From: Bacteroidales bacterium
Lineage (GTDB): Bacteria; Bacteroidota; Bacteroidia; Bacteroidales; WRLA01
Reading direction: 5' to 3'
DNA length: 64,000 bases
Assembly (NCBI GenBank): GCA_963676725.1
Contig: OY781463.1
Coordinates: 205,421-269,420 of the forward strand
The position numbers were made by a program, and so were the translations under genes. This document shows, one piece after another, positions 32,783 to 54,372 of this stretch. Within the stretch, counting starts at the first letter, position 1. Each line of letters begins with the position of its first letter. The notes under the pieces are model-generated. The model saw nothing but the letters and a program-made list of their open reading frames with translations, did no database searches and was not told the origin of the DNA.

Positions 32783-32856
32783 GGGGGATTAGCTCAGTTG
32801 GCTAGAGCGCCTGCCTTGCACGCAGGAGGTCAAGGGTTCGACTCCCTTATTCTCCA
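32783..32856 (+). tRNA. tRNA-Ala (anticodon TGC)
   Basis: Acceptor GGGGGAT/ATTCTCC with the G3:U70 pair, anticodon loop CTTGCAC, T-arm AAGGGTTCGACTCCCTT. Confidence 0.93.
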
Positions 32857-33119: not shown

Positions 33120-35938
<2,819 letters not shown>

Positions 35939-35985
35939 GTGAGAAACAAAATTTTTCGATAATCTGCAGTGTGTCAACGATATTT

Positions 35986-36093
<108 letters not shown>

Positions 36094-36103
36094 CTTTAAT
36101 TTT

Positions 36104-36194: not shown

Positions 36195-36222
36195 GCCCTG
36201 CGCCCTGCAGGGCATTTTTTTT
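36195..36222 (+). terminator. Second hairpin plus T8 run; overlaps the stop codon of the convergent REC-PP2C gene
   Basis: Stem GCCCTGC(36195-36201)/GCAGGGC(36207-36213), then T-run 36215-36222. Confidence 0.55.
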
Positions 36223-37995: not shown

Positions 37996-38842
37996 GTTTT
38001 TTTATTGGCAAACAAATAGTAAACTGTGTGAATTCCCCTTGCTGACTATCTATGGTGATGCTTCCATTATGCTTTTTCTCAATAATTTCCCGCACCATAG
38101 CAAGACCTAATCCTGTTCCTTTTCCTACTTCTTTTGTGGAAAAGAAGGGGAGAAATATTTTTTCTCGGATATGTTCCGGTATGCCTATGCCGTTGTCGTG
38201 AAATGTGATTTGTACGCATTCGCCTTTATTCTCTGTGGCTATTTTAATCTCAGGCGTATATTGTTCGATCTTGAGGGTAGATTTCACAAAAACAGCATAG
38301 CAAGCATTATTCACTATATTTAGTATGGCACGGGAAATATCCTGAGGGATAATTTCTATAGGAGGAAAATCTATAGCAAATTGATATTCGATGCTGGTAT
38401 TGAATGTGCTGTCCGATGCACGCATCCCGTGATATGCGAGTTTTGTGTATTCTTCCACCATTTTGTTGATGTCGGTGCGCTGAAAAGCACCTTCCTTGCC
38501 CCTTGTTTGTAGGAGCATGCCTTTAATGATATTCTGTGCACGTTTTCCGTGTTCTGAAATTTTGCTTGAATTCGCTTCCAGCATTTCAGCAATTTCTGTA
38601 AGCTCGTCAAGAGATTCTGAGAGATGTTCCTGATCCTGAATTTCTTCGATAATCGCCTTTATGTCTTCCGTCAATTGAATATTTAACTGGGCAAAATTAT
38701 TCACAAAATTGAGGGGATTTTGAATTTCATGCAAAATGCCGGCAGTTAATCGCCCGACAGCGGCTAATTTTTCCTGCTGAATAATTTGATCCTCTAGCTT
38801 TGAAATCCTGTTTTCTAGTTCTTCAATTTTATTTTGATTCAT
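37988..38842 (-). CDS. Soluble, sensor-less histidine kinase (coiled coil + DHp + HATPase)
   Basis: H-box [14 protein letters not shown] (His38 codon 38729-38731), N-box [11 protein letters not shown], G1 HDNGIGI, G2 GTGLGL. No hydrophobic segment. Confidence 0.85.
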   Translation of the reverse strand: [284 protein letters not shown]

Positions 38843-38858
38843 AATATCTGGATTTTCA

Positions 38859-41800
38859 TCATGATATAGGAATAGTCACTGTAAATAATGTCCAATCATT
38901 AATGGATGATTCGACATCGATCCTGCCAGAATGGTTCTGGATAATTTCTTTGGCGATATATAATCCTGTGCCTGTTCCTTCAGCTGTTGGTTTTGTGGTA
39001 AAAAACGGATCGAATATTTTCTTTTTTTCCAACTCACTGATGCCCATGCCGTAATCTTTAATGCTAAAAACGGCAAACCTGCCATCAATACAGCTATTTA
39101 TTTCTATTTCCAATCGTTCGATATTTGATTTTTTTGTTTTCTGAATACTGGTATAGAAGGCATTACGCAATAGATGATAGATGACCTGAGCGATTCCATT
39201 GGCAATTATTGGGGCATTTAATTCTTTATTCAATTGAAGGATTGGAATAATTTTTTCACCATTTTCATAGGTGGAAAATTCTTTTTGGACTATTGCTGCG
39301 CCCTGTGTCAAAAGGCTATTGATATCTGTTCTTTGTTTTTCGCCACTTCTGTCGCGCAAAAGATTTTCCATACCTTTTACTATGCGTGCAGTATTTGTTC
39401 CGTGTTCATGGATTTTTTGCACATTCTGCTCCAGCATTTCTGTAATTTCTGAAAGTTCTTCTGTGTCCTCATCAGATAAATTGCTTTCGCTGCCTTTTAT
39501 TATTTCATTTTGCTCTTGGATTAATTCAGCGGATAGTTGCGCAAAATTATTGATATAATTTAAGGGGTTTATGATCCTGTCGACGATGCCCTGAGTGAGT
39601 TTACCGACGGAGGCCAGTTTTTCTTTGCGGATTAATTCCTGCTGTGTGCTTTCCAGGCTGTGGAGGGTTTGCTCAATTTCATGCAATAAATTTGTTTTAA
39701 TAAACGCAGAAACCAGATGCTCTTTGATATTCCTGAATTGTTCGCAGATTTCCTCATCAAAGGCTTGATGCTCATACATATTTTCCATAATCAGATAGCC
39801 CATAACCCTGTTTTTATACCGGATGAGCATGATGATCATCGCAGAAGATTTCTCAAAAACATTTTTTAGTTTTCCCTCAAATTCAATCTGTGGGCTATTT
39901 TTCAGGAAGATGTCTTCAAAAACTTCAGTAGTTTGACTTAAGTATTGTTTTTCAATATCTTCTGTGCTAAGTTTGATGTGTTTTGCCTGTTCAATTTTTC
40001 TTCCTGCTGAGGATGTAAAGCTATAAGTGCCGAGCGTCTCATCAAACATAAGAGAGGTCGCAGTATCAACATTTGGAAGTAGTTGCAGTTTTTTAAGAAG
40101 GGCATCCAAAAGTAAATCCAATTGTATTTCAGCATTAATTGATTTCACCAAATTGTTAATGCCTTCCAATTCTTCGTTTTTCTTGCTTAGTTCTCCCGAT
40201 TGTTGCTTTAAAGCCTCTTTTTGTTTATTGATTTCATGGGTGCGTTCCTCAATAATTCCTTCCAAGCGTTGTTTGTCGCGCATCAATTGAGCCGACCGAT
40301 ACCTTATATACAGAACGATAATAAGGATGAGTGTAAAAATATAGGCCAGATAGGCCATCACTGTATTATACCAGGCCGGATGGATTAAGAAAGAAAAAGT
40401 AATCGGATCGCTCTCTGTTCCGTCGGGGAGTTTTGTTCGTACTTGAAACTCGTACTTTCCTTTTAATAAGTTAGTGTATTCTTTTGAGTGCTCTTGAGAC
40501 CATTCTGACCAGCTGTCATTTAAGCCCTTCAAGCGATAACTGAACAGTACTTCTGCGCCAACATCAAAATTGGTAGATGCAAATTGAAAAAGAAAGTGGC
40601 TCAACTTATGCGGTATGTCCATTGTCGTCTGTTGTTCTAGATCGAAAATAGAATCTCCGGCTTTTATCTTAGTAAAGAAAATGCTGGTTTCGGGCCTGCG
40701 AACATCATTATTTTTTGTTTGAATCAGGAAAATTTTATTTTGACCACCCAGCCAAATATGATTGGAATCAGGGGCATAGGCACAACGGATATCTTCGCCT
40801 TTAAGACGGTATAGTTCTTGCTTTGAAACGGTATAACATTTCGATGTTTTTTTAAAGAGCCTGCTCTCCTTTGATTCTGCTCCGTATGTGTATAATATGC
40901 TATTCGACAAAGAAATAACAGGGTTTAACCATTGATTATTAATCTCTTCTTTGCAGAATAGTTCTGTGTCTGAAAAAGAATTTGATGTTTTATCGTAAAT
41001 GAGAATTCCCCCGCCATAATTAATATGCAAAATATTGTCCGCAATAAAAATCCCACTCGTATTATTGGATGGTAGCCCTTTGTCACCAAAGGGATATAGA
41101 ATTGGTTTTTCTGTTTGCTGTATATCCAAACGCCAGACCCCATCTCCGGGTGCATGAAACCAAATGTTTTTCCCATCGCTCAAAACTGTCCTGATTTCAG
41201 TATTTTTTATAATGTCTTTTTTAATCTGTGTTTGATTGTTATAGGAAAAAGCTCCTCGTGTAGTCCCTGCAAAAATCATATTGCCCTCAAGCACCATGGA
41301 CAATACAAACTCATCAGTGATTTTTGCTATTCCTGAATTATTGATTGCATACAATCCATCACTACAGCCGGCCCAAAGTATATTATTTTCTTCATCTTTT
41401 TGGAGTGTCCAACAGGCTGTATTAATCTCTTTTAGGGCAGTAAATTTTTCTTTTTCCATCCGAAAAAGCCCTTGCATTCCGGCAACATACAGTTGATGAT
41501 TATAATTTAAGAGCGCATTAATGTCTCCTTCAATTCCATTGGATCTGTTATACAGGCTAATATCTGATGGGATTGCGCATAATGCAATGCCTCCATTCAT
41601 GCTTAACCAGAGGTTTTGGTCCTTCTTACTGTAATTCATTGCAGTCACATCAAAAGTTCCATAAACGGGATGGTCTGCAGTATGCATCTGTATAAGGCCA
41701 TCATTATTGAAAAGAAATGCACCTTTATGCTTCGTTCCCAGCATCATCAACTCATTATTAATCCGCTGAATGCAACTGCATTGTCCTTGTTTTGCCATCA

Positions 41801-42545
41801 GGCTTGCATCATTTTTAAGGAATGATGCTTTGCCGTTTTTTATTTGTATGATCCCTTGCAGGCGGCTGAATAAAAGGCTGTCTCCTTTAAAAATATCCAT
41901 GCCTATGATTTCAGTGCTTTGAGGCAGCCCTTCTATGAATGAGGTCTTTTCTGTTTTGTGGCCATCAAAAGAAAAGAGCCCGCTGTTTTCGCTTTGAAGG
42001 AAGATTTTGTCCTGAAAAGAAAATGCTCCGATGCAATAAAAATCAAGGGGTATTTTGCGTATTTCTTCTTTGGTTTTTAAGTAAATTTTATTTTCCGATA
42101 CAAAAATAATCGTCCCGGAAATTTCTCCAATATGAAATACAGTTCCCTCAAAAACAGTATTTTCTGCAAGTGGTTTAAATGAGCTTTGTCCGTTTTGGGC
42201 TTTTTGGATAAAACCACATTCATTGCGGCCGCCGGCATAAACCTGCCCATTGGAGGCTGTGTATAATGATGTGATCATATTATAAGAAGGGGTGGGGATT
42301 AGGGACCAAAGGGCGCCATTATAGGTGATGATTCCCGAGAAATTCCCCACATACAAAATGCCGAGGCTATCGCGGCATAATGAGAAATTTTGTTCCTTGC
42401 CCTGATATTCTTCTGCCGAAAAGAAATGAATCAAAGGACTGCCAGAGAAAGGAATGTTCTCTTCCTGAGCGAAAATGTTTTTGCTGCTTCCAAGAATCAG
42501 AAGCAGTATCGTAAGGATTATGTGACCTGAGATATGATTTTTCAT
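38859..42545 (-). CDS. Large membrane sensor kinase-like protein (periplasmic two-component-regulator propeller repeats + Y_Y_Y-type domain, TM, coiled coil, GAF-like, DHp with Asp instead of His, HATPase)
   Basis: Signal peptide, then about 700 aa of propeller-like repeats, then FSYRLKGLNDSWSEWS (Y_Y_Y region). TM helix MAYLAYIFTLILIIVLYI. Degenerate H-box LTQGIVDRIINPLN (Asp codon 39579-39581). N-box HLLRNAFYT, G1 KDYGMGI, G2 GTGTGL. Confidence 0.85.
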   Translation of the reverse strand: MKNHISGHIILTILLLILGSSKNIFAQEENIPFSGSPLIHFFSAEEYQGKEQNFSLCRDSLGILYVGNFSGIITYNGALWSLIPTPSYNMITSLYTASNGQVYAGGRNECGFIQKAQNGQSSFKPLAENTVFEGTVFHIGEISGTIIFVSENKIYLKTKEEIRKIPLDFYCIGAFSFQDKIFLQSENSGLFSFDGHKTEKTSFIEGLPQSTEIIGMDIFKGDSLLFSRLQGIIQIKNGKASFLKNDASLMAKQGQCSCIQRINNELMMLGTKHKGAFLFNNDGLIQMHTADHPVYGTFDVTAMNYSKKDQNLWLSMNGGIALCAIPSDISLYNRSNGIEGDINALLNYNHQLYVAGMQGLFRMEKEKFTALKEINTACWTLQKDEENNILWAGCSDGLYAINNSGIAKITDEFVLSMVLEGNMIFAGTTRGAFSYNNQTQIKKDIIKNTEIRTVLSDGKNIWFHAPGDGVWRLDIQQTEKPILYPFGDKGLPSNNTSGIFIADNILHINYGGGILIYDKTSNSFSDTELFCKEEINNQWLNPVISLSNSILYTYGAESKESRLFKKTSKCYTVSKQELYRLKGEDIRCAYAPDSNHIWLGGQNKIFLIQTKNNDVRRPETSIFFTKIKAGDSIFDLEQQTTMDIPHKLSHFLFQFASTNFDVGAEVLFSYRLKGLNDSWSEWSQEHSKEYTNLLKGKYEFQVRTKLPDGTESDPITFSFLIHPAWYNTVMAYLAYIFTLILIIVLYIRYRSAQLMRDKQRLEGIIEERTHEINKQKEALKQQSGELSKKNEELEGINNLVKSINAEIQLDLLLDALLKKLQLLPNVDTATSLMFDETLGTYSFTSSAGRKIEQAKHIKLSTEDIEKQYLSQTTEVFEDIFLKNSPQIEFEGKLKNVFEKSSAMIIMLIRYKNRVMGYLIMENMYEHQAFDEEICEQFRNIKEHLVSAFIKTNLLHEIEQTLHSLESTQQELIRKEKLASVGKLTQGIVDRIINPLNYINNFAQLSAELIQEQNEIIKGSESNLSDEDTEELSEITEMLEQNVQKIHEHGTNTARIVKGMENLLRDRSGEKQRTDINSLLTQGAAIVQKEFSTYENGEKIIPILQLNKELNAPIIANGIAQVIYHLLRNAFYTSIQKTKKSNIERLEIEINSCIDGRFAVFSIKDYGMGISELEKKKIFDPFFTTKPTAEGTGTGLYIAKEIIQNHSGRIDVESSINDWTLFTVTIPIS

Positions 42546-45418
42546 ACGCTTTGGCTGTTAAAATGAGCCTGATGATTTTTTTCTCCAAAAACTTGCTCCA
42601 TAAATTCCATATGACTTTCTCTAGATGCTGAATAAAGCAAGAGAAGATTGTTTAGAGTGAATTTATTTAGCTTATAATGTTGGTTTGTTTTATTGTTTAA
42701 ACGAATCTTTTTCTCCGGATTGTTTTCGGGCAATAAGATCAAATCACCGTTTTTGTAGGTACTCTTGGGCTCTGTAATTGTAAGTGTATCATCAACACAT
42801 AAAATGCACTCACTGTAAGGATAGAATACATCATCAACGGATGTGGTTTTGGTATCTTCCAGCAAGATATCTAAAAGTATTGGGTGAATTTGACTCAGGA
42901 TTTTATTGGCATTTGCTGCTTGAATTAAATGGCAGCAATTTTTTTCTGTTTCAGGATTATAGAAAAAAGGCATGAGTTCCGGTGTATATTCAAGGCAAAA
43001 TTTCAAATGTTCAGGATTTCGCTCTTTCAGAATATGAACTGCTGTTTTCTTTAAAAGAGTATTTTTACTGCATATATGTGCTGCAATCAGCTCTGTAAAG
43101 CTTTCCGAAAAATCTTTGAACATAGCAGCTTGTTGCATTGCCAAGGCGATTGTTGTGCTTGAAAACATCCAGATATTGCCCCCGATCAATTCTTTGATGT
43201 GATCGTTCAGTCCTTTCTTTTTTTGTGGGAAAAACCTACTTAGTTTGTCCAGGCTTTCTTCGGTGCTCTCTGAAGTGAAGAGCGGTATCAATACTTCTTT
43301 TAAATTTCCCTGAATGATAAATTCCAATGCTTCTGCAGCAAAACCACTGCTTGCACCCTTTGTGTTTTTTCTGATGCGCTCGAGGCTTTCCGCATCAAAA
43401 AGCAGTCCCAAAGTATTGAAAATACCAGTTTCATAGCGATTTGCATCATTAGTTAGAGCTTTTATTAGGTCGGGCTGGGCGCTGTCTTTTATGTCTTCCA
43501 ATATTCTGTAAATACTACAAATGTCTTCGATTTTGGCATAGATAATGTCTTCCGCTTTTCTTCTAAACTCTCCATTAAAGCGTTCTGTTTTGTTTTTGGT
43601 AATCATCTTAATCGCATAATCCCGTTCGATGGGCGATGGATTGTCTATTTGTTTTTGCAGAAAATCCTGGCCGGAATTTATATGAGATAAAATATTTAAA
43701 ATGGTCATCCTGAGAAGGGTGTCATCTGTGTTTTTTATAAATGCCTGCTCAAGTTCAGTCGGGGCATGAAGGTGGGATAATGAAAATGCTGCAAGATTCC
43801 TATATTCCGGATCAGAAAGATAGGTGAGGAGTTTGCTGATGAGTTCTTTTCGTTTCAGCAATGCTGCAGCCTGAATGCATTCCCGTTTTATGGCTGCATT
43901 TTCTGAGTTCATTAGTGAAATTATTTCATGCACAGCAGATAAGCGTCCGTTTAGGCCTTCCTGTGTGGCATTGCTCACTCTTTGGTCTTTAAAATAACCG
44001 GGATCGGGCATGAGGCTTTGATCGCCAATTTCGAGAGAAGCTTTTTGAAGGATGCCGTTATTTATTTGCGAAGGGCGTTTCTGTTCTGTTTCTTGTTCCT
44101 TTTTAGTGCTGTCTTTTGGATGTATGCCAATCAGAATTTCAATTTTATGCCTGTATTCTTTCATCGTATTGATGACGACCCAAAGCCAGATAATGCCAAT
44201 CGGGATAAAAATATAGTTATAGCTTACAATGCTTTTTACCGGTATATAAGTAAATGCGACTAATGCAAGCCCGGCGATAATACTGCCAATTGCTTTGGGA
44301 ATGCCTTCGATGAAGTTCTGGAAATTTAAGCGCCCTTCAATTGGTATTGCCTGATATAAAACCTGAAAAGATGGATCGTGTATGCCGGAACGTGTCGATC
44401 GCTCAAATAATTTCCCCATGGCAACCAAGACAAAAAATAGGGCAAGGCCTGGAGCAATGCTTCCCAAAATGGCAGCAGGGGCAAGAGTTCCCAATAAAGC
44501 AATGGGCATGATAATTAATCCTATTTTTAGTCCGTAGCGATTGAGTAACCTGCCCGATAACAAAGACTTAAAGAGTAATTCAATCAGAGCCGCAACACCA
44601 AGAAATACACCAAGAAAGCTGGCCAAAACTTCTGTGTCGGGAAAAGTTTTGCGCGTTTCGGCCAAAAAGATGAAATCGACATAATAAATGGCAAACATTG
44701 GAAAAATGGCCAATAGGAAAACAAAAAGCCCAAAACGGTCGCGAATCATTTTTTGCTTTGTTGGAGCATCCTGTTTTTTGTTTTGCTGCACAGGGCTGCC
44801 TTCATTTAGTTCTTTTTGGAACTTTTTTGTGATGATTAACATAAGCGCCAGGCAGATAAGCAGCTCGGCTGCCGAAAGGAACAATAGCCCGGAGGCATCA
44901 ATAAATTGAAGAAGTAGGGGGACAAGAAAGAAACTCAGGATATTTGAAACAACCTCGCCAGAGCTGATAACACTAAACAGCCTTTTGCCTTGTTGGATTT
45001 TAAAAATGCGTCCGGCTATGCCCCAAAAGCCTATGCCATAAACGAATATAAAAACCCGTACCCAAACAAACATGATAAAACTCAGCCAGACAATTTCGCT
45101 TTGTTTGAAAATAATGCTTAACATCAATACGCTGACAAAGAGAAAGATAATCCCGGCTACATTCAGGCTGCGCAGGTTCAGGTGTTTTTGGACAGCCGAA
45201 TAGAGTTTCGACATCCCAAAACCAATCAGACCACTTGCCAAATATGCCCATGGAAGGATTTCGTTTCCATAGAATTTCAGGAAAAGAGCTGTGCCTCCTG
45301 TATAAAAAAATGCAATAGCAGAACCCATAAAAAAGCTATAGGAGGCCATAAGAACCACCACTGTTTGCTCTGCAGCTTTAATATTAAAGAGGTCCGCTAT
45401 TTTTCTTGCGAGATTCAT
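42542..45418 (-). CDS. Fusion protein: N-terminal 11-12-helix MFS-fold domain (ATP/ADP-translocase/Npt-like by eye) + cytoplasmic HEAT/armadillo-like repeats + C-terminal small beta-rich domain
   Basis: About 420 aa of hydrophobic helices (first helix context AEQTVVVLMASYSFFMGSAIAFFYTGGTALFLKFYG). These are followed by about 400 aa of amphipathic helical repeats and a terminal about-110-aa region (ILCVDDTLTITEPKSTYKNGDLILLPE) that could be cNMP-binding/cupin-like. The family call is a recollection, not a search result. Confidence 0.6.
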   Translation of the reverse strand: MNLARKIADLFNIKAAEQTVVVLMASYSFFMGSAIAFFYTGGTALFLKFYGNEILPWAYLASGLIGFGMSKLYSAVQKHLNLRSLNVAGIIFLFVSVLMLSIIFKQSEIVWLSFIMFVWVRVFIFVYGIGFWGIAGRIFKIQQGKRLFSVISSGEVVSNILSFFLVPLLLQFIDASGLLFLSAAELLICLALMLIITKKFQKELNEGSPVQQNKKQDAPTKQKMIRDRFGLFVFLLAIFPMFAIYYVDFIFLAETRKTFPDTEVLASFLGVFLGVAALIELLFKSLLSGRLLNRYGLKIGLIIMPIALLGTLAPAAILGSIAPGLALFFVLVAMGKLFERSTRSGIHDPSFQVLYQAIPIEGRLNFQNFIEGIPKAIGSIIAGLALVAFTYIPVKSIVSYNYIFIPIGIIWLWVVINTMKEYRHKIEILIGIHPKDSTKKEQETEQKRPSQINNGILQKASLEIGDQSLMPDPGYFKDQRVSNATQEGLNGRLSAVHEIISLMNSENAAIKRECIQAAALLKRKELISKLLTYLSDPEYRNLAAFSLSHLHAPTELEQAFIKNTDDTLLRMTILNILSHINSGQDFLQKQIDNPSPIERDYAIKMITKNKTERFNGEFRRKAEDIIYAKIEDICSIYRILEDIKDSAQPDLIKALTNDANRYETGIFNTLGLLFDAESLERIRKNTKGASSGFAAEALEFIIQGNLKEVLIPLFTSESTEESLDKLSRFFPQKKKGLNDHIKELIGGNIWMFSSTTIALAMQQAAMFKDFSESFTELIAAHICSKNTLLKKTAVHILKERNPEHLKFCLEYTPELMPFFYNPETEKNCCHLIQAANANKILSQIHPILLDILLEDTKTTSVDDVFYPYSECILCVDDTLTITEPKSTYKNGDLILLPENNPEKKIRLNNKTNQHYKLNKFTLNNLLLLYSASRESHMEFMEQVFGEKNHQAHFNSQSV

Positions 45419-45421: not shown

Positions 45422-46252
45422 TTAATAGTTGATTGGTTCGAGCTGTGATTTTGGCAAAGCAAAATAGAGGTTTTTATCGGTGAGCCAGCCTTCCCGAATC
45501 ATTGCAACAATAAGGTATCTACCTTCTTTATAAAGGCTTTCAATGTTCTGAAAATCATCAAAATCGATTAATTGATAATCTGAGCCTGCTTGATTATGCT
45601 CGATATATCTCAATAGTTTTTCTTTATCTATGCGATTGTATACAAAATCCACAGGTGTTAGCCTAAGGCTGAGCATAAAAGCTTTTTGAATTCCCAATTG
45701 CAGCTCCGGATGGTAATTATCAAAAACGCAGCCCATTTTATTCAGATGCAAATATGCCGACACACTATTATCTGTCTCCAATAATCCCCTGTCTGTCAGC
45801 ATTCCTTTTTCCATGGCAATAAGGTTCAGGTAATTTACCATATGGAGTCCGGTGTTTTTTCCCTTCAGGCGTTCATCCATGGCAAGTCTAAGGTTAAAGG
45901 TGCATTTATCAGGGGTTTGATAATAAGCACTATATACGCAGGCCAGGAGTTCTCCTTCCTTATTTTCCAGCATTAATGCGTAGCCGAAGAGAATAAAGCG
46001 ATAGATATCATATGCACTCAGGTCGTTTGCAATGCGTTCACCAAAAATAATCCAACGATCATGGGTAAAGCGATAAAGGCGCTCAATATCGTTTAGTTCT
46101 CCTTTGACTAATTTGAGGCCTTGATCGTTAAAGAATCTTTCAATTTCTTGCTTATTGGTTTTAATAAATAGTTCAGTTTCGTGCAGATGTTGCCATTGTG
46201 AGCGGTCGATGCAAATTTCTGCTGGTTTTCGATAAAATGTATAGTCTTCCAT
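45422..46252 (-). CDS. Hypothetical protein with GNAT-acetyltransferase-like core
   Basis: RLAMDERLKGKNTGLHMVNYLNLIAMEKG resembles GNAT motif A (R/Q-x-x-G-x-G/A). AYLHLNKMGCVF resembles motif B. Confidence 0.45.
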   Translation of the reverse strand: MEDYTFYRKPAEICIDRSQWQHLHETELFIKTNKQEIERFFNDQGLKLVKGELNDIERLYRFTHDRWIIFGERIANDLSAYDIYRFILFGYALMLENKEGELLACVYSAYYQTPDKCTFNLRLAMDERLKGKNTGLHMVNYLNLIAMEKGMLTDRGLLETDNSVSAYLHLNKMGCVFDNYHPELQLGIQKAFMLSLRLTPVDFVYNRIDKEKLLRYIEHNQAGSDYQLIDFDDFQNIESLYKEGRYLIVAMIREGWLTDKNLYFALPKSQLEPINY

Positions 46253-46267: not shown

Positions 46268-48895
46268 TTACCAGATATTGTTGTTTAAACGGTAGCTAAG
46301 TCTTATGAGAAAATTCCTTCCGGCTTGCGGCGTTCGCCAGGCGTATGCAAAGCCATCGGCTGAGCGTATGCCCGGATCAGAATATTGATGGTCGAGCAGA
46401 TTATAGCAAGAAAATTGCAAATCCATTCCTTTAATGATGTCGAAATAACTAATGCTTGTGTTGATTACTGTTGTTGCGGGGAATGCTCCCGGATTTGCAG
46501 GGACAGATGTGCCCGTGCCTGTTTCCCTTTCTGCAGCCCATTTTCCTCTGATGTTGATATTCAGATGATTAAAAAACTCAATATTCCCGATAATATTCAG
46601 TTGATGTGATGCAATATCGCCTATCCTTTGATACTCATCAGTTGGTAGTCCGGACTCGTCTTTGATATTTTCTTCAGGATGGGTATAGGTATATCCTGCC
46701 TGAATGCTGTAATTATCCCTTTTATAATTGAAAAGAGCTTGCGCGCCCATAATATGGAGTTTTCCAATGGCTTGATTTTGTCCTGTATATGAATTTTGCC
46801 AAGGAACAATCACGGTGCCAACGGCTCCATCATAGGTGCTATTGTAAAAAGAGGCTTCAATAAATGAATTTTTGTTAAGATTATAGCCAACAGATACCTC
46901 CAGGTTCGTTACTCTTTCGGGGTTTAGATTAGGGTTGGCCAACAAACGCTGTGGGTTGGTGGCGTATTTCGTCCAATTCGAGGCATCCTGAAAGGCGCTT
47001 GCATAGATGGCTTTAAAAATAAAATCCCCGGGTGTTGCAACAAGCGCAATCCTTGGGTTAAATACAGAGCCATATCCTCCGCTTTTACGGATTTTATTAT
47101 AATCGTACCTTCCGCCTAAGGTGAATATAAACAGCTCTTTCCAATGATAAGAAGCTTGCAAATAGGCTCCAATATTCATAATATTGAAATTATTCCCTCC
47201 GGGCATCAGGTCGCCTGAGCTTGTGCCATCGTCTATTACATTAAGGCTGTCTGGCGGATTGATAAGCATTCTGTAGTCGCCTTGTAAATTGCTGCCTCGA
47301 AATTCAAGGCCACCGATCAGGTCGAAATTGGTTGTTGGCCTATAACTGATTTTTAGTTCATCGCGCACCTGCGAAGATGTTTGATACAGGAAGACCGTTG
47401 TAAACTGAACAGGCGTTTGAAGCACAAATGCATCGGCATTCAGCCCAGAATTCGCATAATTGGCCATGCTCACAGAGCGGCTTAAATCATTTGCATCGCT
47501 TTTTCGGTAATAGGCTAAATTGCTTAGGTGCACACTTTCACTCAGTTGTTTCTCAAACAGACTATAAACATACAATTGTTTCGGATTCCATATCTGGCCA
47601 TTGTCTGAGCCAAGTTTTGACCAATCTGTGAAATAATTCAATCCTCCTGTTTTGGTTTCCCAGAGTTCATAACCAATAGTGAAATTGCCAAAAAGCAGTT
47701 TGCCCGAAAAGAAATAATTGTCGGCAATATTACTGTAAGAGGGAAGTGCATTATCAACTTTCGTATTTAATCCATTGATGTCGAGTTGACGCGCAGCCGT
47801 GTTTCCTGCTTGATTCAGATTGGCGGCAATTGGGTTTCCTGCTGCATCATAACTTATATTATAATAGTCGGCAACCTGAGCAAAATCGGGTGAATTGATA
47901 AATTCTTCCACATTTTGATCAACAGATAAGAGTCGTCCATAATTAATCGTATCATATGCTTCCGTGGAAAAATCGAATTCAGGATAGCCTGAGAGGTCAT
48001 AATCCTCTGTGAAATAGGTTTTAAATGTGCTGATAAAGCTAAACTTTTCAAATTTTCCACCAATGCTGATGTCTGCATATTTTGTGTTCCACGAGCCATA
48101 GCCAACAGAGGCGTCAATGCCTATTTTATGATCTCCGGCCAAATCGGCTGGTTGTTTAGTAATCACATTCACAACTCCTGTAAAGGCATTTGCGCCATAC
48201 ATTGTTGATGCCGGTCCATAGATTACCTCAATACGCTTGATATTGCTCACGGGGTATTGCCGGTTAATGTATGCGATATTTGACCAAAGGTCGTTTTCCT
48301 CCACACCATCAATCAATACGAGCATACGGTCTGTATTGTTTGATCTATACCCACGCTGGTAGATGTTAGAAAAAGTGCCTGCACGTGTGCTTGAGATATC
48401 AAATCCGGGTAGATCGTAAAAAATTTCAGCAAGATTGTTGTATGCTCGTTGCCTTATTTCCAGATCACTCAGAACAATAACGGTGGCAGGGGCTTCGTGG
48501 ATGTTTTCCGCTTTTTTAGAAACAGAGGTTACTTGACGCGAAGCGGCTTCTGCCTTTTTGCTGTTTAGTAATCGTTTGAATTGTGGTGGATCAAAAATAT
48601 TTGCTTCATATGCCGGCGACATCATCAATAACTTCCCCATAAAATGATTTGCTGCATCCAATGAATCCAGGGCCAGGTTTGATAGGATCATTAGGCGAAA
48701 GGCTTCTTCTTCTTGTCTGATGCCAGAATGATTTCCCAGACAATCTTTAAGGATTGCTATGGATTCATTAAAATGACCTGATTCATATGATTTTTTCGCC
48801 TCACTCAGATTTTGCGTGCCACAGTTTTGAGCTGTAAGCATCAAAGGGGCCAAAGCCATGATCAGAAAAAAGATTAGGGTAAATATTCGGTTCAT
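46268..48895 (-). CDS. TonB-dependent outer-membrane receptor with N-terminal TPR-like extension
   Basis: Signal peptide, then about 110 aa of helical extension. Plug motifs: APATVIVLSDLEIRQR, PGFDISS, IDGVEEND, IKRIEVIYGPASTMYGANAFTGVVNVITK. Long beta-barrel ending RLSYRLNNNIW. Its ATG overlaps the upstream stop (ATGA at 48892-48895). Confidence 0.85.
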   Translation of the reverse strand: MNRIFTLIFFLIMALAPLMLTAQNCGTQNLSEAKKSYESGHFNESIAILKDCLGNHSGIRQEEEAFRLMILSNLALDSLDAANHFMGKLLMMSPAYEANIFDPPQFKRLLNSKKAEAASRQVTSVSKKAENIHEAPATVIVLSDLEIRQRAYNNLAEIFYDLPGFDISSTRAGTFSNIYQRGYRSNNTDRMLVLIDGVEENDLWSNIAYINRQYPVSNIKRIEVIYGPASTMYGANAFTGVVNVITKQPADLAGDHKIGIDASVGYGSWNTKYADISIGGKFEKFSFISTFKTYFTEDYDLSGYPEFDFSTEAYDTINYGRLLSVDQNVEEFINSPDFAQVADYYNISYDAAGNPIAANLNQAGNTAARQLDINGLNTKVDNALPSYSNIADNYFFSGKLLFGNFTIGYELWETKTGGLNYFTDWSKLGSDNGQIWNPKQLYVYSLFEKQLSESVHLSNLAYYRKSDANDLSRSVSMANYANSGLNADAFVLQTPVQFTTVFLYQTSSQVRDELKISYRPTTNFDLIGGLEFRGSNLQGDYRMLINPPDSLNVIDDGTSSGDLMPGGNNFNIMNIGAYLQASYHWKELFIFTLGGRYDYNKIRKSGGYGSVFNPRIALVATPGDFIFKAIYASAFQDASNWTKYATNPQRLLANPNLNPERVTNLEVSVGYNLNKNSFIEASFYNSTYDGAVGTVIVPWQNSYTGQNQAIGKLHIMGAQALFNYKRDNYSIQAGYTYTHPEENIKDESGLPTDEYQRIGDIASHQLNIIGNIEFFNHLNINIRGKWAAERETGTGTSVPANPGAFPATTVINTSISYFDIIKGMDLQFSCYNLLDHQYSDPGIRSADGFAYAWRTPQAGRNFLIRLSYRLNNNIW

Positions 48896-51800
48896 TTTTT
48901 GTTAGTTTCGGTGCGATATGGGATGTCTGTGCCAATATATTCCTGCCATTCAAATATTGTGAGTCCGCGTCCTGCTGTTTGTTGTGCTTTTTTTGCCAGC
49001 CGTTCCGGGTCAATTATGGTTTTTATTATTTGATTGTCGGAACCACATGAAATAATCTCTGAATCATCTTCGGCAAACAAAAGGTCGTAAATCCAACCAT
49101 CATGATTGTGAATGGACAATGGGGGCGCATCGGTTTTCGAACAGTCCCAGATTCTTATGTTTTGGTCGTAGCCTGCCGAAGCTAAAAGTCCGCCTGAATG
49201 ATTAAAAGCTAAGGCTTGAACTCCGGATGTATGTCCAATCAATGAAGATTTTTTCCCGTTCTGATCAATGAGAAATACCTGTCCTTTATCGTTGGCACAA
49301 GCCATATTTTTGTTTTTGGCATCATAGGCAATGGCAGTAAGCGGATGGGATACTTCATTAATTATTGTGTTTTCTTCGCCGCTTTCAAGATGAATAAACA
49401 GAAGTTTGCCGTTTTTTAATCCTGCATAAAGGCCGTTTTTTGTTCCTAAGCAACTTGTAATTGGCGCTTCCGTTTTTTGAAGGGCGATAAGGGGATTGCT
49501 TTCTGCATTTGTCTGATCGTATTTATAGATTTGCCCTTGCCCGTCGATACAAATTAATTGGTCGTTGCTGCTGGTAATATGGTATATCATTGCCGGAAGG
49601 GGAATATTTTTCGGCGGGGAGGCATTCGTTAAATCAAAAATCAATAAGTCTTTATTGTAGGTGACTGCGGCCAGATTCCCATTTCCAAAAACAGGGCCAC
49701 TGCTCAGAAATTCTGTGGAAACCGGGCTGTTGATAAGCAGAGGGAGATCTTTATTTCCTGATGCTTGAATCTTTATCAGCTTCCCGTCCTGTGTGGCAGC
49801 GATAATATATTTATTATCAAAGAACTGTAGCTTTTTAATGGCGTCATCGTGCTGGTACATCTGGTCTCCATTCGCAGTAGTTTGGCTTAATGCCTGAAAA
49901 ACATCAGGATCCTGTGGATTGCCTTGGTTCTCTTTGTTCAGACGCCACGCTTCTAGGGCTAAAAGCTGGGGCAATTCCCCTTGAATGCTCTTCGATAAAT
50001 CAACGGCTTGTATTGCGAGAGCCTTGGCAATCGCAAGTTTTCTTAATCTTTGTGCCCTGTTTTCTGAAATTTCTGCTTTAGTTTTTTGTGCTTCAGCAAT
50101 TTGTTTTTGCTCCAATGCTTCTGTTTTTCTTTGTTCGGCCTCATCTTTGGCTTGAACAGCAACTACTGAAGCGCTATCGGCTTTTTCGCGTTCGTATTCT
50201 GCAAGGCTGCGCTCATAAATGGCAATATTTTGCTGGGCAATGGCATATTGTTTCTGTTGCTCTGTTATGAGTTTTTGCTGTTCGGCAATTTCTTGTTGCT
50301 GTTCGGCAATTTTTTGTTGAATAATGGCTTTTTGCCGCTCGGTCTGGGCTGTGTTCCTTTCGCTTACGGCAATTTTTTCTTTTTCAACGGCCTTTCTTTC
50401 AGATGCTTCCGCTTGAAACATTAAGGTAAGGGCATAAACAAAAAGAAGTATCGATAGTATTGATGCAGCACTGAGGATGAGCACAAATTGCCGGGCCCTT
50501 TTCAGTTCTTTTTTTTGTTTTTCCTGTGTGAGCAGTTCTTTGGTTTCTTTTTCATTTTGCGATGTATGCAAGAAACTCATAGCCCTGTCAAAACTATGGT
50601 CATAACGTGAAGCCCATCGTAAATTTGGATGGTTATTATTTTTCCAGTTAATGGCCAATTGAAGTTCAGGATCTTGCCATAAAGCAGCTCTTCCTTCCTG
50701 ATAAAGTGCAGCAGAAGTCGCCAGTCTTTTATAAAGTCGAGCAGAGTGTGCTTCCTCGGCGATCCATTTTTTTAAGCGCACCCAAACACGCATCAGGCTT
50801 TCGTGGCTGATGTCGATCATGGTTTCGCTCATGATTGTATTTGGGAAAGGAGGTGTTAAAAAGGCACGCCCGGGTTTTCTGAAGAGTTCAATCACCGATT
50901 TTACTTCTTGTTCGCTTTCGTTGCAGATGCCTGCGAGTTCTTTCAGGCTGCAAGGCCTGCGCACAATACGGTTTTCTTCACTGATTTCGGTGAGGGCGCG
51001 GAAGGTTTTCTCGCAGATATTTTTTTGGCGATCGGTTTTTAATTCTGCATAAATTTCTTCTGCATGGATGGATAAGGCTTTTTCTATCTTACCGGCGGCG
51101 ATATAGTGTTTAATGCCAAGTGTTTCTGTTCCCCTTTTTGTGGATTGCCAATGATCCCATGTGCGCATTAATGCATGCTGCATAATGGGAAGTTGGTCTT
51201 GATTGTTCCCAATATCTTGGAGTATTTTTTCTGTAAAACCATCTTCCAACTGATGCCCCATTTTCTCCAAAGGGCCTGAAATTGCTTCCAAACAGGCGGT
51301 TCTATCCATGCGCGGAACCAGATAATTGCCTTTATTAATGAGTTCGGTGAGTTTTGGGAAGCGTGTGCAGTCGTATAAAAAATCGGAACGCATGCTAATA
51401 ATGATCCGTAGCTTGCTTCCTTGGATCAGGTCGGAAAGCAAATCTGTAAATATTTGCGCTTCCTTAGATTGTGCTTCGTCGGTAGTAAAACGGAACAATT
51501 CTTCAAATTGATCGAGGACCAATAAGCAGTTCTCCCCCTTTTCAGGGAATTGGGCGATGGTGTTTTTTAATTCTTCGGTTCTGTTTTTAGATGATTGATA
51601 ATCCTTTGGTTCTTCCTTTTTCTTTATAGAAAACAATTGCTCAAGGGCTTCTATTAAATTCTGTACAGGCTGTTTCCCCGGTCGAATAATGGAATATCGA
51701 AATGCATCCGATTGAGCTTTCATGGCGGGAATGATGCCGGCAAGGATCAGTGATGATTTTCCACATCCTGAAGAACCTGTAATGGAGACAAAACGACTGC

Positions 51801-51999
51801 TTTCCATCTTCTTTAGTAGCTCTTCTATTTCTTTTTTGCGGCCAAAAAATAGTTGAGCCTCTTCAGGTCGATAGCTTCGGATTCCCGGAAATGGATTTAT
51901 TAGGTTCACTAATGCTTTTTTTATTTGGTTGTCGATGCAAAAACACTTTCCGCTTCTGTGTATTTTAGTACGCCATTTTGAAGCGTTGTAAATGTACAT
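48892..51999 (-). CDS. Membrane-anchored STAND-type P-loop NTPase with coiled coil and C-terminal WD40 beta-propeller (1035 aa)
   Basis: NPFPGIRSYRPEEAQLFFGRKKEIEEL...ITGSSGCGKSSLILAGIIP (Walker A), LLVLDQFEELF (Walker B). One TM helix at aa 505-528 (nt 50416-50487), preceded by KQKKELKRARQ. About 150 aa of Q/E/A-rich coiled coil follow. WD40-like repeats lie at the C-terminus (HTSGVQALAFNHSGGLLASAGYDQNIRIWD). Confidence 0.8.
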   Translation of the reverse strand: MYIYNASKWRTKIHRSGKCFCIDNQIKKALVNLINPFPGIRSYRPEEAQLFFGRKKEIEELLKKMESSRFVSITGSSGCGKSSLILAGIIPAMKAQSDAFRYSIIRPGKQPVQNLIEALEQLFSIKKKEEPKDYQSSKNRTEELKNTIAQFPEKGENCLLVLDQFEELFRFTTDEAQSKEAQIFTDLLSDLIQGSKLRIIISMRSDFLYDCTRFPKLTELINKGNYLVPRMDRTACLEAISGPLEKMGHQLEDGFTEKILQDIGNNQDQLPIMQHALMRTWDHWQSTKRGTETLGIKHYIAAGKIEKALSIHAEEIYAELKTDRQKNICEKTFRALTEISEENRIVRRPCSLKELAGICNESEQEVKSVIELFRKPGRAFLTPPFPNTIMSETMIDISHESLMRVWVRLKKWIAEEAHSARLYKRLATSAALYQEGRAALWQDPELQLAINWKNNNHPNLRWASRYDHSFDRAMSFLHTSQNEKETKELLTQEKQKKELKRARQFVLILSAASILSILLFVYALTLMFQAEASERKAVEKEKIAVSERNTAQTERQKAIIQQKIAEQQQEIAEQQKLITEQQKQYAIAQQNIAIYERSLAEYEREKADSASVVAVQAKDEAEQRKTEALEQKQIAEAQKTKAEISENRAQRLRKLAIAKALAIQAVDLSKSIQGELPQLLALEAWRLNKENQGNPQDPDVFQALSQTTANGDQMYQHDDAIKKLQFFDNKYIIAATQDGKLIKIQASGNKDLPLLINSPVSTEFLSSGPVFGNGNLAAVTYNKDLLIFDLTNASPPKNIPLPAMIYHITSSNDQLICIDGQGQIYKYDQTNAESNPLIALQKTEAPITSCLGTKNGLYAGLKNGKLLFIHLESGEENTIINEVSHPLTAIAYDAKNKNMACANDKGQVFLIDQNGKKSSLIGHTSGVQALAFNHSGGLLASAGYDQNIRIWDCSKTDAPPLSIHNHDGWIYDLLFAEDDSEIISCGSDNQIIKTIIDPERLAKKAQQTAGRGLTIFEWQEYIGTDIPYRTETNKK

Positions 52000-52266: not shown

Positions 52267-54372
52267 ATGAAAAAAGTACTTTTAATTTTAGCCGTAAGCT
52301 TTATCTGTATGACGGCTTTGCATGCGCAGATGGATCATGTGTGGGAAGCTCAAGCGGGCGCACGCGTTACCTGGAATAAATTCGCTCCAAACGGAAACCT
52401 GATCTGCGGGACCAAAGACGGTAAAACCGTTGCTTTTGATGCCAAAACAGGGAAAGTGATCTGGAAAAAGGATTTTAACCATGGCGCTTTTAATATTCTG
52501 CAAAATACAACCAGTATTTATTACGATTCAGACAAAACAGGTCTGCTGGTGCTCAATCCTGAGACTGCTGAAGTGCTTTGCGATTCTAAAAAACTCGGAA
52601 TGGACAGCATTAAGGCTTATTATCCCATTCGTGCAGGAAACGGATTCCTTATTTATACACAAATGGACGACCGTGAGCAATTCTGGATGCTCAGCCTAAA
52701 AACAGGAAAATTATTGTGGAAACAAGACCTTGATCTTGATAATGATAAAAAAATCGAGAAAGGGATGTTTTCCATAGAAATGGAAGAGGACCCTGAAGCA
52801 AAAGGATTGATGTGCGACCCTGTTGGTGATGGAAAAGGTGGCGCTTTTGTTGCCGTGCACGACCGTTTAATGCATTTCGATAAAGAAGGAAAAATTGCTT
52901 GGGATATTCAGTATCCTTCAATGTTTGGTGATCAGGATGGCTTTTTCAAATCAGCAAGTGTCGAATTTGCTAAAATGTTCCCCGATCAAACAGGAGAAAA
53001 TATCTATGTATTTAGCGGTGGATATATGACTTGCCACAGCCAGGCTGATGGTTCTTTAAGCTGGGAGAAGCCAGTGAAAGTTACCGGACCGGTTAAGAAC
53101 CTTATTTTTGAAGAAAACGGAATGATTGTAATTCCTGCCAGTGACAATAATGCCATGAAAAAGCATAAACTGAATCTGGTTGACTATAAAACTGGTAAAA
53201 CCCAATGGGGCGAAGAAGGAACAAAATTTAAAGGTGGCTATATCCAGTCCAATTTTTGCTCAAAAGGAATCGTGTTTATCACAAAAGCCTATATGAATGA
53301 ATCTTATTTCTTTAATATTGTAAATCAGGAAACCGGACAACTTGAGCTGGATAAATCATTGAAGCTTTTCCCCGGGCCATACGAATTCGAAGAAGTAAAT
53401 GGTGGTCTCCTCGTTTCTTCTCGCCGTGGTGCAAATATTTATAACTATGCTACAAAGGAGTTTGTAATTAACAAAGAGCTGAAAACAGGAAGCAAAGATT
53501 ATCTTGTAAAGGCCGATGCCGGAAGTAAAGTTTATTTCTATACTTCAGCAAAAGACCTGATTTATGTGTTTGATAAAACTACTCTGGAAGCAAAACAGTT
53601 TAATAAAGAAAAAATTAAGCTTAAAGGTGGCGACGAAGCCAAAGGCCTTGATTTATTTAAAGATGGTATGGTGCTGCACTCAGAACAAAACCTGATTAAA
53701 TTCGATTTTGAAGGAAACCAAATTTATAATAAATATTATGCTGCTCCGGGTGCCGGATGGTTGAATGTAACAGGAAATGTCCTTAGTGCTACCTTTAAAG
53801 TAATGGGTGGTTTGGCAACCGTTGCTATTGCAGGCGCTACTTCCTATGCTGTTGAAGCCGGTGACCAATATACCCGTCAGGGAATGGATATTGTAGATAA
53901 ATCGTATGAAGAAACAAATGGCGTGGATGCTGACCTTATTCAATATCGTAAAGATGTGGATGAATATAAGCAAAACATGGATATGGCGAAAAATGAGCTG
54001 AATAAGGAAATGTCGGAAATGGCCACCATGGGTATCTTAAATGCTGTTGATATTGGTGATGAAATCAATGCAATTTCTGAACGCTTTAAAAACTCCAAAG
54101 CAACAAAAAATTATGTCATCCTTATGACAAAAGACAAAGAGCGCGGCGGTATTGGCCTTGCTGTTGTTTCTAAATTGGATGGCGAAATTAAAGGCTTTAT
54201 CCCAATGAAAGAGAATAAAGAAGATCCTTGCTATACTGTCGATCCTTTTACAAATATGTTGTTCTGGATGCCTTCCCTCGATGATGGTTCCAAAGGCTTT
54301 GGCCGCTACAGCAATATTCAGGAGCTGATGAATAGTGGAACGATTTATTCTTTCGACCTGAATAGTCTATAG
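52267..54372 (+). CDS. Secreted PQQ-like/BamB-like beta-propeller repeat protein with hydrophobic segment and C-terminal domain (701 aa)
   Basis: Signal peptide (LILAVSFICMTALHAQ). Recurring G-K-x-x-W repeats (GKVIWKKDF, GKLLWKQDL, GKIAWDIQY, GSLSWEKPV, GKTQWGEEG). Hydrophobic stretch VMGGLATVAIAGATSYAV near aa 510. Confidence 0.6.
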   Translation: MKKVLLILAVSFICMTALHAQMDHVWEAQAGARVTWNKFAPNGNLICGTKDGKTVAFDAKTGKVIWKKDFNHGAFNILQNTTSIYYDSDKTGLLVLNPETAEVLCDSKKLGMDSIKAYYPIRAGNGFLIYTQMDDREQFWMLSLKTGKLLWKQDLDLDNDKKIEKGMFSIEMEEDPEAKGLMCDPVGDGKGGAFVAVHDRLMHFDKEGKIAWDIQYPSMFGDQDGFFKSASVEFAKMFPDQTGENIYVFSGGYMTCHSQADGSLSWEKPVKVTGPVKNLIFEENGMIVIPASDNNAMKKHKLNLVDYKTGKTQWGEEGTKFKGGYIQSNFCSKGIVFITKAYMNESYFFNIVNQETGQLELDKSLKLFPGPYEFEEVNGGLLVSSRRGANIYNYATKEFVINKELKTGSKDYLVKADAGSKVYFYTSAKDLIYVFDKTTLEAKQFNKEKIKLKGGDEAKGLDLFKDGMVLHSEQNLIKFDFEGNQIYNKYYAAPGAGWLNVTGNVLSATFKVMGGLATVAIAGATSYAVEAGDQYTRQGMDIVDKSYEETNGVDADLIQYRKDVDEYKQNMDMAKNELNKEMSEMATMGILNAVDIGDEINAISERFKNSKATKNYVILMTKDKERGGIGLAVVSKLDGEIKGFIPMKENKEDPCYTVDPFTNMLFWMPSLDDGSKGFGRYSNIQELMNSGTIYSFDLNSL

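Follow-up and report, generated by a model that had tools for sequence, protein, structure and literature searches.

A single-pass nSTAND1 NTPase with a WD40 propeller predicted to be periplasmic, encoded beside an outer-membrane barrel in Bacteroidota

The stretch of Bacteroidales bacterium DNA analysed here, 64,000 nucleotides (nt) of contig OY781463.1 (assembly GCA_963676725.1, positions 205,421 to 269,420) and referred to below as the window, contains on its minus strand, at positions 48892-51999, an open reading frame (ORF) of 1035 amino acids (aa) that encodes an nSTAND1 NTPase, a single transmembrane (TM) helix, a long coiled coil and a WD40 propeller. The next gene encodes an outer-membrane barrel, and this linkage recurs in related genomes. 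We consider it moderately probable that the STAND protein is an NLR-like switch that passes once through the inner membrane, holds its WD40 propeller on a rigid stalk of ~20 nm near the outer membrane, contacts the N-terminal domain of the barrel protein there and relays to the cytoplasm. STAND/NLR proteins are usually viewed as sensing the compartment of their ATPase. Nearly all of the close members examined appear to put the sensor across a membrane, and in the Bacteroidota members it appears to be carried by a stalk like a ruler, with a dedicated outer-membrane protein as its neighbour. The gene and its parts, all on the minus strand, are as follows.

48892 to 51999, minus strand: the entire gene of 1035 aa, in which an nSTAND1 NTPase, a TM helix, a coiled coil and a WD40 propeller follow in this order (ORF list, Pfam, AlphaFold2)
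50692 to 51894, minus strand: nSTAND1 NTPase module, aa 36-436, predicted to be cytoplasmic (Pfam, motifs, AlphaFold2 confidence >90)
50488 to 50520, minus strand: Lys/Arg cluster KQKKELKRARQ, aa 494-504, on the predicted cytoplasmic side of the TM helix (sequence)
50416 to 50487, minus strand: the single TM helix, aa 505-528, in which the small residues G510, A512 and S516 are conserved (hydropathy)
49987 to 50415, minus strand: coiled-coil stalk, aa 529-671, 143 residues in 19 heptads (AlphaFold2, heptad table)
49015 to 49866, minus strand: seven-bladed WD40 propeller, aa 712-995, predicted to be periplasmic (DSSP of the AlphaFold2 model, Foldseek, Pfam)

The nSTAND1 profile (PF20703) matches aa 36-436 with an E-value of 1.1e-95 and 321.9 bits, far above the cutoff of 27.1, over profile positions 1-374 of 379. 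The conserved motifs are all in place, with PFPG at aa 36-39, LFFGR at aa 50-54, the Walker A sequence GSSGCGKSS at aa 75-83 (nt 51751-51777), the Walker B sequence LLVLDQFEE at aa 159-167 (nt 51499-51525), the sensor Arg204 within SMRSDF and, within ISHESLMRVW, His399, probably the nucleotide-contacting histidine. PFPG, LFFGR, Walker A, Walker B, R204, a DQLP..QH motif and His399 form invariant columns in an alignment of 120 homologues and, given this invariance, the ATPase is presumably active. The AlphaFold2 model, built with the 120 homologues and with a mean predicted local distance difference test score (pLDDT) of 84, has values >90 across the NTPase region; helical modules reach aa 460 and the WD40 propeller is C-terminal to them, the layout of the STAND class. 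Family members begin ~8 residues ahead of the PFPG motif and no domain N-terminal to the NTPase was found. An earlier note, made from the sequence alone, had described this gene as a STAND NTPase joined to a TM helix, a coiled coil and WD40 repeats, had quoted the motifs at these places and had seen no N-terminal effector domain, and all of this is confirmed.

With the full protein as query, 5668 homologues were obtained at E<=1e-10. The best 120 of these, with lengths of 1023-1088 aa, align to 96% of the query at 38-43% identity, originate from metagenome-assembled genomes of Bacteroidota and are labelled as 'hypothetical' or as 'WD40 repeat protein'. A scan of one genome per species identified at least 593 relatives, and the best 80 of these were taken as genomic loci (L001-L080) with their ORFs clustered together with those of the window. 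The 80 loci are from Bacteroidales, Cytophagales, Chitinophagales and Sphingobacteriales, together with three from Acidobacteriota, and include the cultured genera Marivirga, Dyadobacter, Fulvivirga, Sediminibacterium and Mucilaginibacter. The NTPase domain alone is much more widespread, with 49,285, 29,461 and 9,605 representatives of 50%-identity clusters at E<=1e-3, 1e-10 and 1e-30, respectively. A tblastn search of plasmids with this domain returned 179 records, most frequently from Streptomyces (92) and Nostoc (14), and 14 plasmid-borne nSTAND1 proteins from Streptomyces, Rhodococcus, Nostoc, Acaryochloris, Caballeronia and Bacteroidota served as the distant sample.

The TM helix coincides with the Kyte-Doolittle maximum of the protein (2.59 in a 19-residue window, at aa 505-528), the only segment with a value >1.4, and the Lys/Arg cluster precedes it directly; helix and cluster are where the earlier note had placed them. 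One TM helix, located 445 +/- 5 residues past Walker A, is present in 120 of the 120 close and in 80 of the 80 genomic homologues. Within the helix L509, A512 and S516 are invariant in the 120 homologues and G510 is nearly so, and the small-residue face formed by G510, A512 and S516 suggests helix packing. The topology was assigned from hydropathy and from the charges on the two flanks. In the 80 genomic homologues, the N-terminal flank has on average 6.3 Lys/Arg and 1.25 Asp/Glu, and the C-terminal flank 3.05 and 3.25; the 120 closest proteins have a similar bias, so that the two sets together range from 6.2 to 6.3 Lys/Arg against ~1.3 Asp/Glu on the N-terminal side and from 3.0 to 3.7 against 2.8 to 3.3 on the C-terminal side. 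The net charge is ~+5 on the N-terminal and ~0 on the C-terminal side and, by the positive-inside rule, the positively charged flank stays in the cytoplasm. This places the ATPase in the cytoplasm and the C-terminal 500 residues outside, an argument that had been made for the one protein and that holds family-wide, in 200 homologues. The N-terminal 500 aa have no signal peptide and the ATPase needs cytoplasmic ATP, which makes export of the N-terminal part hardly possible. We therefore have high confidence in an N-in/C-out topology, strongly indicated as it is by these sequence properties, and the exported barrel encoded by the neighbouring gene supports a periplasmic placement independently of the charges.

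The topology could, in principle, have been misread. The helix might tether a protein that is cytoplasmic on both sides of it, or be buried within an oligomer, with the WD40 propeller sensing cytoplasmic ligands like that of Apaf-1. We regard this as very improbable. In favour of such a reading, the propeller consists of canonical WD40 repeats similar to those found in cytoplasmic proteins, and Cys is equally frequent in the two halves of the protein. A segment of 24 uncharged residues with a hydropathy of 2.6, with no Pro or turn and with charges on both flanks is, however, difficult to accommodate in this way, the charge bias is both strong and conserved, the near-universal neighbouring genes encode exported outer-membrane proteins, and a fixed stalk length would be hard to explain in the cytoplasm.

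The earlier note had regarded a STAND protein with its sensor repeats outside the cytoplasm and translationally coupled to a TonB-dependent receptor as an unusual arrangement, and this was not borne out for the family. A TM helix ~445 residues past Walker A is present in 145 of the 146 nearest representatives of 50%-identity clusters and, with a preceding Arg/Lys cluster, at the equivalent position in 10 of the 14 distant plasmid-borne proteins. The plasmid cases are from Caballeronia, Runella, Hymenobacter, Aureibacter, Acaryochloris (WD40), Nostoc (CHAT), Rhodococcus (WD40) and Streptomyces (HTH, PD40, AAA). An extracellular WD40 domain has also been proposed before (PMC7475262). The TM helix after the NTPase is a trait of the family, not an oddity.

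The coiled coil is a special feature of this clade. From aa 530 to 662, one heptad position is occupied by Ala (Ser or Thr in three heptads) and the position three residues on by Gln or Glu, so that the core reads a = Ala and d = Gln across 19 heptads, and aa 561-584 form a Gln-rich near-repeat, QQKIAEQQQEIAEQQKLITEQQKQ. The AlphaFold2 model has continuous helix at aa 469-531, which includes the TM segment, and at aa 538-671. The near-repeat and a coiled coil of about 150 residues, both seen earlier, correspond to a helix of 143 residues. Its length is strictly maintained; among the 120 sequences, only ~40% identical to the query, there are no insertions or deletions in aa 480-671, and, for the middle half of these homologues, no Pro occurs past the TM helix before +149, where the first one is found. 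At ~0.15 nm per residue, 143 residues would extend for ~21 nm if fully helical. The inner-to-outer-membrane distance in Gram-negative cells is of the same order as such a stalk with the propeller added, and the length of the stalk may therefore approximate the width of the periplasm. The long stalk is not a property of all relatives. About half of the nearest cluster representatives are without a long Ala-heptad helix, and in the cyanobacterial and actinobacterial TM-nSTAND1 relatives the gap from the TM helix to the WD40 domain is only 40-60 residues.

Beyond the stalk, the model contains seven four-stranded blades, as assigned by DSSP, with block pLDDT values mostly >85, bracketed by a helical cap (aa 676-707) and by two C-terminal helices (aa 998-1021). 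Pfam recovers WD40 (PF00400) with 53.6 bits, above its cutoff of 27, and WD40 and beta-propeller models together cover ~aa 775-997. The family profile matches a WD40 protein of Nostoc in the PDB (2ymu, E 3e-110) and also Apaf-1, and with Foldseek the propeller has TM-scores of 0.83-0.86 to solved WD40 domains. For the model as a whole, full-length Apaf-1 (3sfz, E 3e-17) ranks first. The WD40 propeller of the earlier note is thus well founded. In some close relatives by NTPase sequence, including P0134, P0161, P0170 and P0200, the protein is 1700-2000 aa long with up to 1464 residues past the TM helix, and P0170 also has a Laminin_G_3 domain. This large spread of lengths and domains after the TM helix indicates that the extracytoplasmic part of the clade is highly variable.

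In 72 of the 75 loci with enough downstream sequence, the gene that follows the STAND gene encodes an outer-membrane barrel, mostly at a gap of -4 to +23 nt. There are two types of barrel. A TonB-dependent receptor takes this place in 18 loci, the window among them, and these receptors are orthologs; in 54 loci the barrel is an OMP_b-brl_2 protein of ~355 aa. The TonB-dependent receptor beside the STAND gene, which the earlier note had singled out, is real, with recognizable Plug and barrel domains, and is one of two interchangeable partners. Proteins of both types begin with a signal peptide, followed by a common N-terminal domain of ~90 aa with two conserved Cys. In the window receptor, the signal peptide is aa 1-23 and the N-terminal periplasmic domain aa 24-112 (nt 48560-48826), with a TonB-box-like sequence, EAPATVIVLS, after it at aa 134-143. 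Pfam identified the Plug and barrel in this receptor and no STN domain. When compared with the PDB, the ~90-aa domain had weak TPR-like matches only (best E 0.0097, all others E >= 0.037), so that its fold is tentatively TPR-like, and it may constitute a new type of receptor N-terminal extension. That the same domain heads two unrelated barrels, always beside the STAND gene, is the strongest indirect argument for its being bound by the periplasmic part of the STAND protein. Three more distant relatives with short linkers have no partner barrel; the contigs of two (L097 and L099) have downstream sequence and the third (L096) ends just past the gene.

The stop codon of the STAND gene overlaps the ATG of the receptor gene, as ATGA, from which translational coupling of the two genes had been proposed. 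The overlap is present, although it hinges on which receptor start is chosen; in the gene call made by JGI for the identical contig, the receptor begins 12 codons downstream of the overlapping ATG. Within positions 48860-48895 of the minus strand, the JGI start would truncate the signal peptide, and the longer version has a proper one, MNRIFTLIFFLIMALAPLMLTAQ. Because a complete signal peptide results, the overlapping start is the more plausible of the two, if unproven.

A TonB-dependent receptor beside a stalked inner-membrane protein might also mean that the device works from the inside out. Oligomerisation or a conformational change of the ATPase would then gate or energise the barrel through the stalk, in the manner of TonB or TolA, with ATP in place of the proton-motive force; as a variant, outer-membrane uptake would be coupled to the NTT-like transporter of the inner membrane described below. 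The layout does resemble that of TonB and TolA (an anchor, a spacer and a head beside an outer-membrane partner), the partner in the window is a TonB-dependent receptor, and 44 of 47 loci have a linked gene for a transporter. STAND NTPases, as a class, are known to act as slow switches rather than motors. The receptor retains a TonB-box-like motif, so that it may be coupled to TonB in the ordinary way, and in 54 loci the barrel is small and has no plug. TonB_C and TolA domains were not detected by Pfam, and the TIR, PP2C and STAS proteins that recur as partners point to signalling. An inside-out device is, on balance, unlikely.

The genes that accompany the STAND and barrel genes bear on what a signal might do in the cytoplasm. 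An NTT-HEAT protein of ~1040 aa is linked in 44 of the 47 loci with 7 kb of sequence on either side, a first genomic context for the NTT-HEAT(-cNBD) transporters, in which cNBD denotes a domain that binds cyclic nucleotide monophosphates (cNMP). Its gene is downstream in the operon type of the window and upstream in the other type. The family profile matches the plastid ADP/ATP carrier NTT1 (9j3j, E 1e-20) and the cNMP-binding domains of PKG (~E 1e-19); among 31 members, 31 have HEAT repeats and 10 a cNMP_binding match. With the window protein alone, the matches are MFS_1 (E 8e-8), HEAT_2 (E 1e-4) and NTT1 (9j3n, E 0.019). The linked transporters are assigned to the NTT-HEAT(-cNBD) fusion family (PMC5381601), with the window protein as a probable member. 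In two Cytophagales loci (L023, 396-5088; L064, 445-5200), the other of the two operon types lies beside queA and an enolase-superfamily gene and is also adjoined by a PorE-like gene with TPR, PD40, CarboxypepD_reg and OmpA domains. With these neighbours, the operon has a conserved place in the chromosome and does not look like a mobile island.

Directly upstream of the STAND gene, in 42 loci, is a gene for a TIR-DUF4062 protein of ~470 aa; of 35 members scanned, 21 have a TIR_2 and 23 a DUF4062 match. TIR orthologs are also upstream of the STAND gene in the three distant short-linker relatives, for which no barrel or transporter gene is present in the sequence available. TIR(-DUF4062) genes were located at 3023-4537 in L096, 5599-7008 in L097, 5544-7004 in L099 and 4326-5945 in L081; the ends of the TIR and nSTAND1-TM genes overlap in L097 and L099, and some of these contigs have Planctomycetes-type neighbours. 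In Caballeronia, a TIR protein is encoded directly upstream of the nSTAND1 gene, with a DUF4231 protein also among its neighbours. As TIR genes accompany relatives with a short stalk and no barrel, the TIR protein looks like the ancestral cytoplasmic partner, and the system looks like an ancestral split TIR-STAND pair to which barrel and transporter were added along with the long stalk. Other linked genes include one for a lipoprotein-like protein of ~405 aa after the small barrel in 45 loci, HAMP-PP2C genes in 16 loci, STAS and RsbW-like genes in Dyadobacter and Runella, and sensor kinase genes that recur. The REC-PP2C and histidine kinase genes of the window, with the HAMP-PP2C, STAS and RsbW-like genes of its relatives, suggest a partner-switching layer.

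TIR and cNMP-binding proteins are also reminiscent of anti-phage systems, and the WD40 propeller might detect a phage or toxin at the envelope so that the STAND protein activates TIR in conflict or abortive infection, with the cNMP-binding NTT transporter as an effector that kills or that depletes nucleotides. nSTAND1 was defined within predicted counter-invader systems (PMC8195603), TIR-DUF4062 is upstream in 42 loci and present beside distant relatives, and the Caballeronia neighbours are TIR and DUF4231 proteins. The logic would be Pycsar-like in its use of cNMP, and PycTIR is among the PDB matches of the C-terminal domain of the transporter. With the PADLOC defence models, however, the best matches of the STAND protein had E-values of 9e-4 and worse and were to short P-loop stretches, its neighbours had none, and no component had a significant match; the known anti-phage STAND systems in PADLOC (Avs, bNACHT and others) were therefore rejected as an identification. 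Orthologs with 31-43% identity occur across several orders of Bacteroidota, in synteny beside housekeeping genes such as queA, unlike patchy islands; the window has no TIR gene, and its associated genes encode ordinary signalling proteins. A role in defence has a low probability.

We favour, instead, a pathway that runs inward from the outer membrane. The nSTAND1 ATPase would reside in the cytoplasm, with the propeller held by the coiled coil in the periplasm near the outer membrane, where the propeller or its helical cap would most likely contact the conserved N-terminal domain of the barrel, here the TonB-dependent receptor. If this partner changed, for instance on binding a ligand or on being damaged, the change would travel via the stalk and TM helix and allow the ATPase to exchange its nucleotide and to oligomerise, after which it would act on partners in the cytoplasm. 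For most relatives that role would fall to TIR-DUF4062, together with the NTT-HEAT-cNMP-binding transporter; in the window, the likely outputs would be the products of the co-operonic kinase and PP2C genes along with the NTT-HEAT transporter. The domains, the conserved motifs, the TM helix, the length of the stalk and the gene linkage are observed; the contact, the direction of signalling and the outputs are put forward as proposals.

Several observations weigh against this account. The evidence for contact between the WD40 propeller and the barrel consists of gene adjacency and the common N-terminal domain, and the direction of information flow and the oligomeric state of the stalk are assumptions. 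Values of pLDDT are low for aa 529-614 of the stalk in the monomer model, which is expected of a coiled coil modelled as a monomer. Cys makes up 0.86% of the residues before and 0.89% of those after the TM helix; Cys content was considered as a marker of compartment and, being equal in both halves, is uninformative. A tblastn search found no TIR-DUF4062 gene anywhere in the 64-kb window, where the gene upstream of the STAND gene encodes a divergent PQQ_2-like protein, not TIR. The window transporter has no recognizable cNMP-binding match, although its C-terminus aligns to that region. With no TIR gene and no detectable cNMP-binding region, the output step is the weakest part of the proposal for the window.

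A more far-reaching form of this scheme would be a vertically inherited pathway common to the Bacteroidota, from a barrel that signals surface events via its dedicated N-terminal domain to WD40 propeller, stalk, STAND and TIR, with a nucleotide product of TIR controlling the cNMP-binding NTT-HEAT transporter. We consider this form rather unlikely. If true, it would be the first STAND/NLR pathway that senses across two membranes and would provide a function for the NTT-HEAT-cNBD family. If the contact with the barrel alone is real, the ~90-aa domain would represent a new type of receptor N-terminal extension, signals would have a path from outer membrane to cytoplasm that employs neither sigma/anti-sigma pairs nor two-component sensors, and TIR domains and NTT-HEAT-cNBD transporters would be tied to envelope sensing. 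Marivirga tractuosa, Dyadobacter, Runella rosea and Sediminibacterium goheungense are cultured carriers in which this could be tested.

In the window, the STAND gene is the first of a cluster on the minus strand that extends from 51999 down to 36221, with genes that overlap or are separated by short gaps, in the order STAND, TonB-dependent receptor, p276, NTT-HEAT transporter, Reg_prop/Y_Y_Y sensor kinase, HisKA kinase, a putatively exported 199-aa protein and REC-PP2C. The genes downstream of the STAND gene are as follows.

46268 to 48895, minus strand: TonB-dependent receptor, 875 aa (Pfam Plug and TonB_dep_Rec_b-barrel)
45422 to 46252, minus strand: p276, 276 aa, an ORF with no assigned family (no Pfam, NCBIfam or PADLOC match)
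42542 to 45418, minus strand: NTT-like (MFS/TLC) transporter with HEAT repeats and a divergent C-terminal region that aligns to the cNMP-binding domain, 958 aa (Pfam MFS_1 and HEAT_2)
38859 to 42545, minus strand: hybrid sensor histidine kinase with Reg_prop, Y_Y_Y and HATPase_c domains, 1228 aa (Pfam)
37988 to 38842, minus strand: HisKA-HATPase_c histidine kinase, 284 aa (Pfam)
37396 to 37995, minus strand: protein of 199 aa with a hydrophobic, signal-peptide-like N-terminus (ORF and sequence; no Pfam match)
36221 to 37381, minus strand: response-regulator receiver with PP2C/SpoIIE phosphatase, 386 aa, the last gene of the cluster (Pfam SpoIIE E 1.9e-52, Response_reg E 1.3e-21)

Orthologs of p276 are present only in L006 and L007, and elsewhere its slot is occupied by a GNAT acetyltransferase (in Dyadobacter and Runella) or by a 290-aa protein. 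That p276 might be a relative of either was considered and rejected, as no relation was found. NCBIfam had no informative model for the STAND protein, p276 or the transporter. The 1228-aa hybrid kinase, in which Reg_prop and Y_Y_Y form periplasmic propellers, has orthologs in 5 loci, with a sensor histidine kinase at the same position in Runella, and the REC-PP2C gene is related to the HAMP-PP2C gene of the 16 other loci. Divergently transcribed from the plus strand, at 52267-54372, is a gene for a 701-aa protein with a hydrophobic N-terminus and matches to PQQ_2 and BamB-like propellers; it is not kept beside STAND homologues and was excluded as a member of the system. A complete ribosomal RNA operon (16S, two tRNAs, 23S, 5S) on the plus strand at 31096-36094 stops 127 nt short of the cluster's last gene, and further upstream a class A RNase P RNA is encoded on the minus strand at 24280-24665.

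No published description of this operon was found, in a search with little coverage of subscription journals, and a conserved multi-gene envelope system around a STAND gene in Bacteroidota appears to be undescribed. The nSTAND1 family itself was defined by Kaur, Iyer, Burroughs & Aravind in 2021 (PMC8195603), the text of which describes it mainly with formylglycine-generating enzyme sulfatase-like (FGS) lectin sensors and with fused effectors or effector-associated domains (EADs), and does not discuss a TM helix of nSTAND1 proteins. The protein described here shares with this family the full-length NTPase module, all of the conserved motifs and a C-terminal repeat sensor, with the TM helix common to both; the members of this clade differ in having no fused effector, a 143-residue Ala/Gln coiled coil, an outer-membrane partner and linkage to NTT-HEAT. 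As in Apaf-1 and the AP-ATPase-WD40 proteins, a STAND ATPase is followed by helical domains and then by a WD40 sensor but, unlike Apaf-1, with which it has ~12% identity, the protein has no CARD or other N-terminal effector, and a membrane and a long stalk are predicted to separate ATPase from sensor.

Closer in topology are the p20-AAA_16-TM-WD40 orthocaspases of cyanobacteria, for which an extracellular WD40 domain has been inferred (PMC7475262), and the 'transmembrane STAND ATPases' fused to proteases that are mentioned in PMC12642450. In these too, as proposed from their sequences, one TM helix would separate an NTPase in the cytoplasm from a WD40 domain outside it, and the Nostoc CHAT-nSTAND1-TM-WD40 protein in our distant sample is of this type. 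They differ in having a fused protease and ~40-60 residues between TM helix and propeller, and there is no report of an outer-membrane partner in their case.

Two envelope systems invite comparison. In FecA-FecR-FecI, as here, a receptor with an N-terminal extension ahead of its TonB box is found beside a single-pass inner-membrane protein, the N-terminal signalling part of which is cytoplasmic and the C-terminal part periplasmic. In contrast, there is no STN domain and no FecR here, the Pfam results for the gene and its operon neighbours contain no match to FecR or to an extracytoplasmic function (ECF) sigma or sigma-70 family, and most of the loci have the small barrel without a plug. With TonB and TolA the protein shares an N-terminal membrane anchor, a spacer of about the length of the periplasm and a C-terminal head that would meet an outer-membrane partner, but a cytoplasmic ATPase of 500 aa replaces their short N-terminus and the spacer is a heptad coiled coil; among the Pfam matches of the protein and of the cluster genes, TonB_C, TolA, ExbBD and TolQR are all missing.

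The 958-aa protein of the window appears to combine an NTT-like membrane domain with HEAT repeats, as do the NTT-HEAT(-cNBD) fusion transporters, and its relatives also have the cNMP-binding domain. This functionally uncharacterised family is that of Major, Embley & Williams in 2017 (PMC5381601), where no link of NTT-HEAT to STAND, TIR or outer-membrane genes was reported. The Bacteroidota clade is set apart from all of these by the combination of a stalk of fixed length with an outer-membrane partner and with linkage to NTT-HEAT, to TIR-DUF4062 (not in the window) and to PP2C, STAS or kinase genes.

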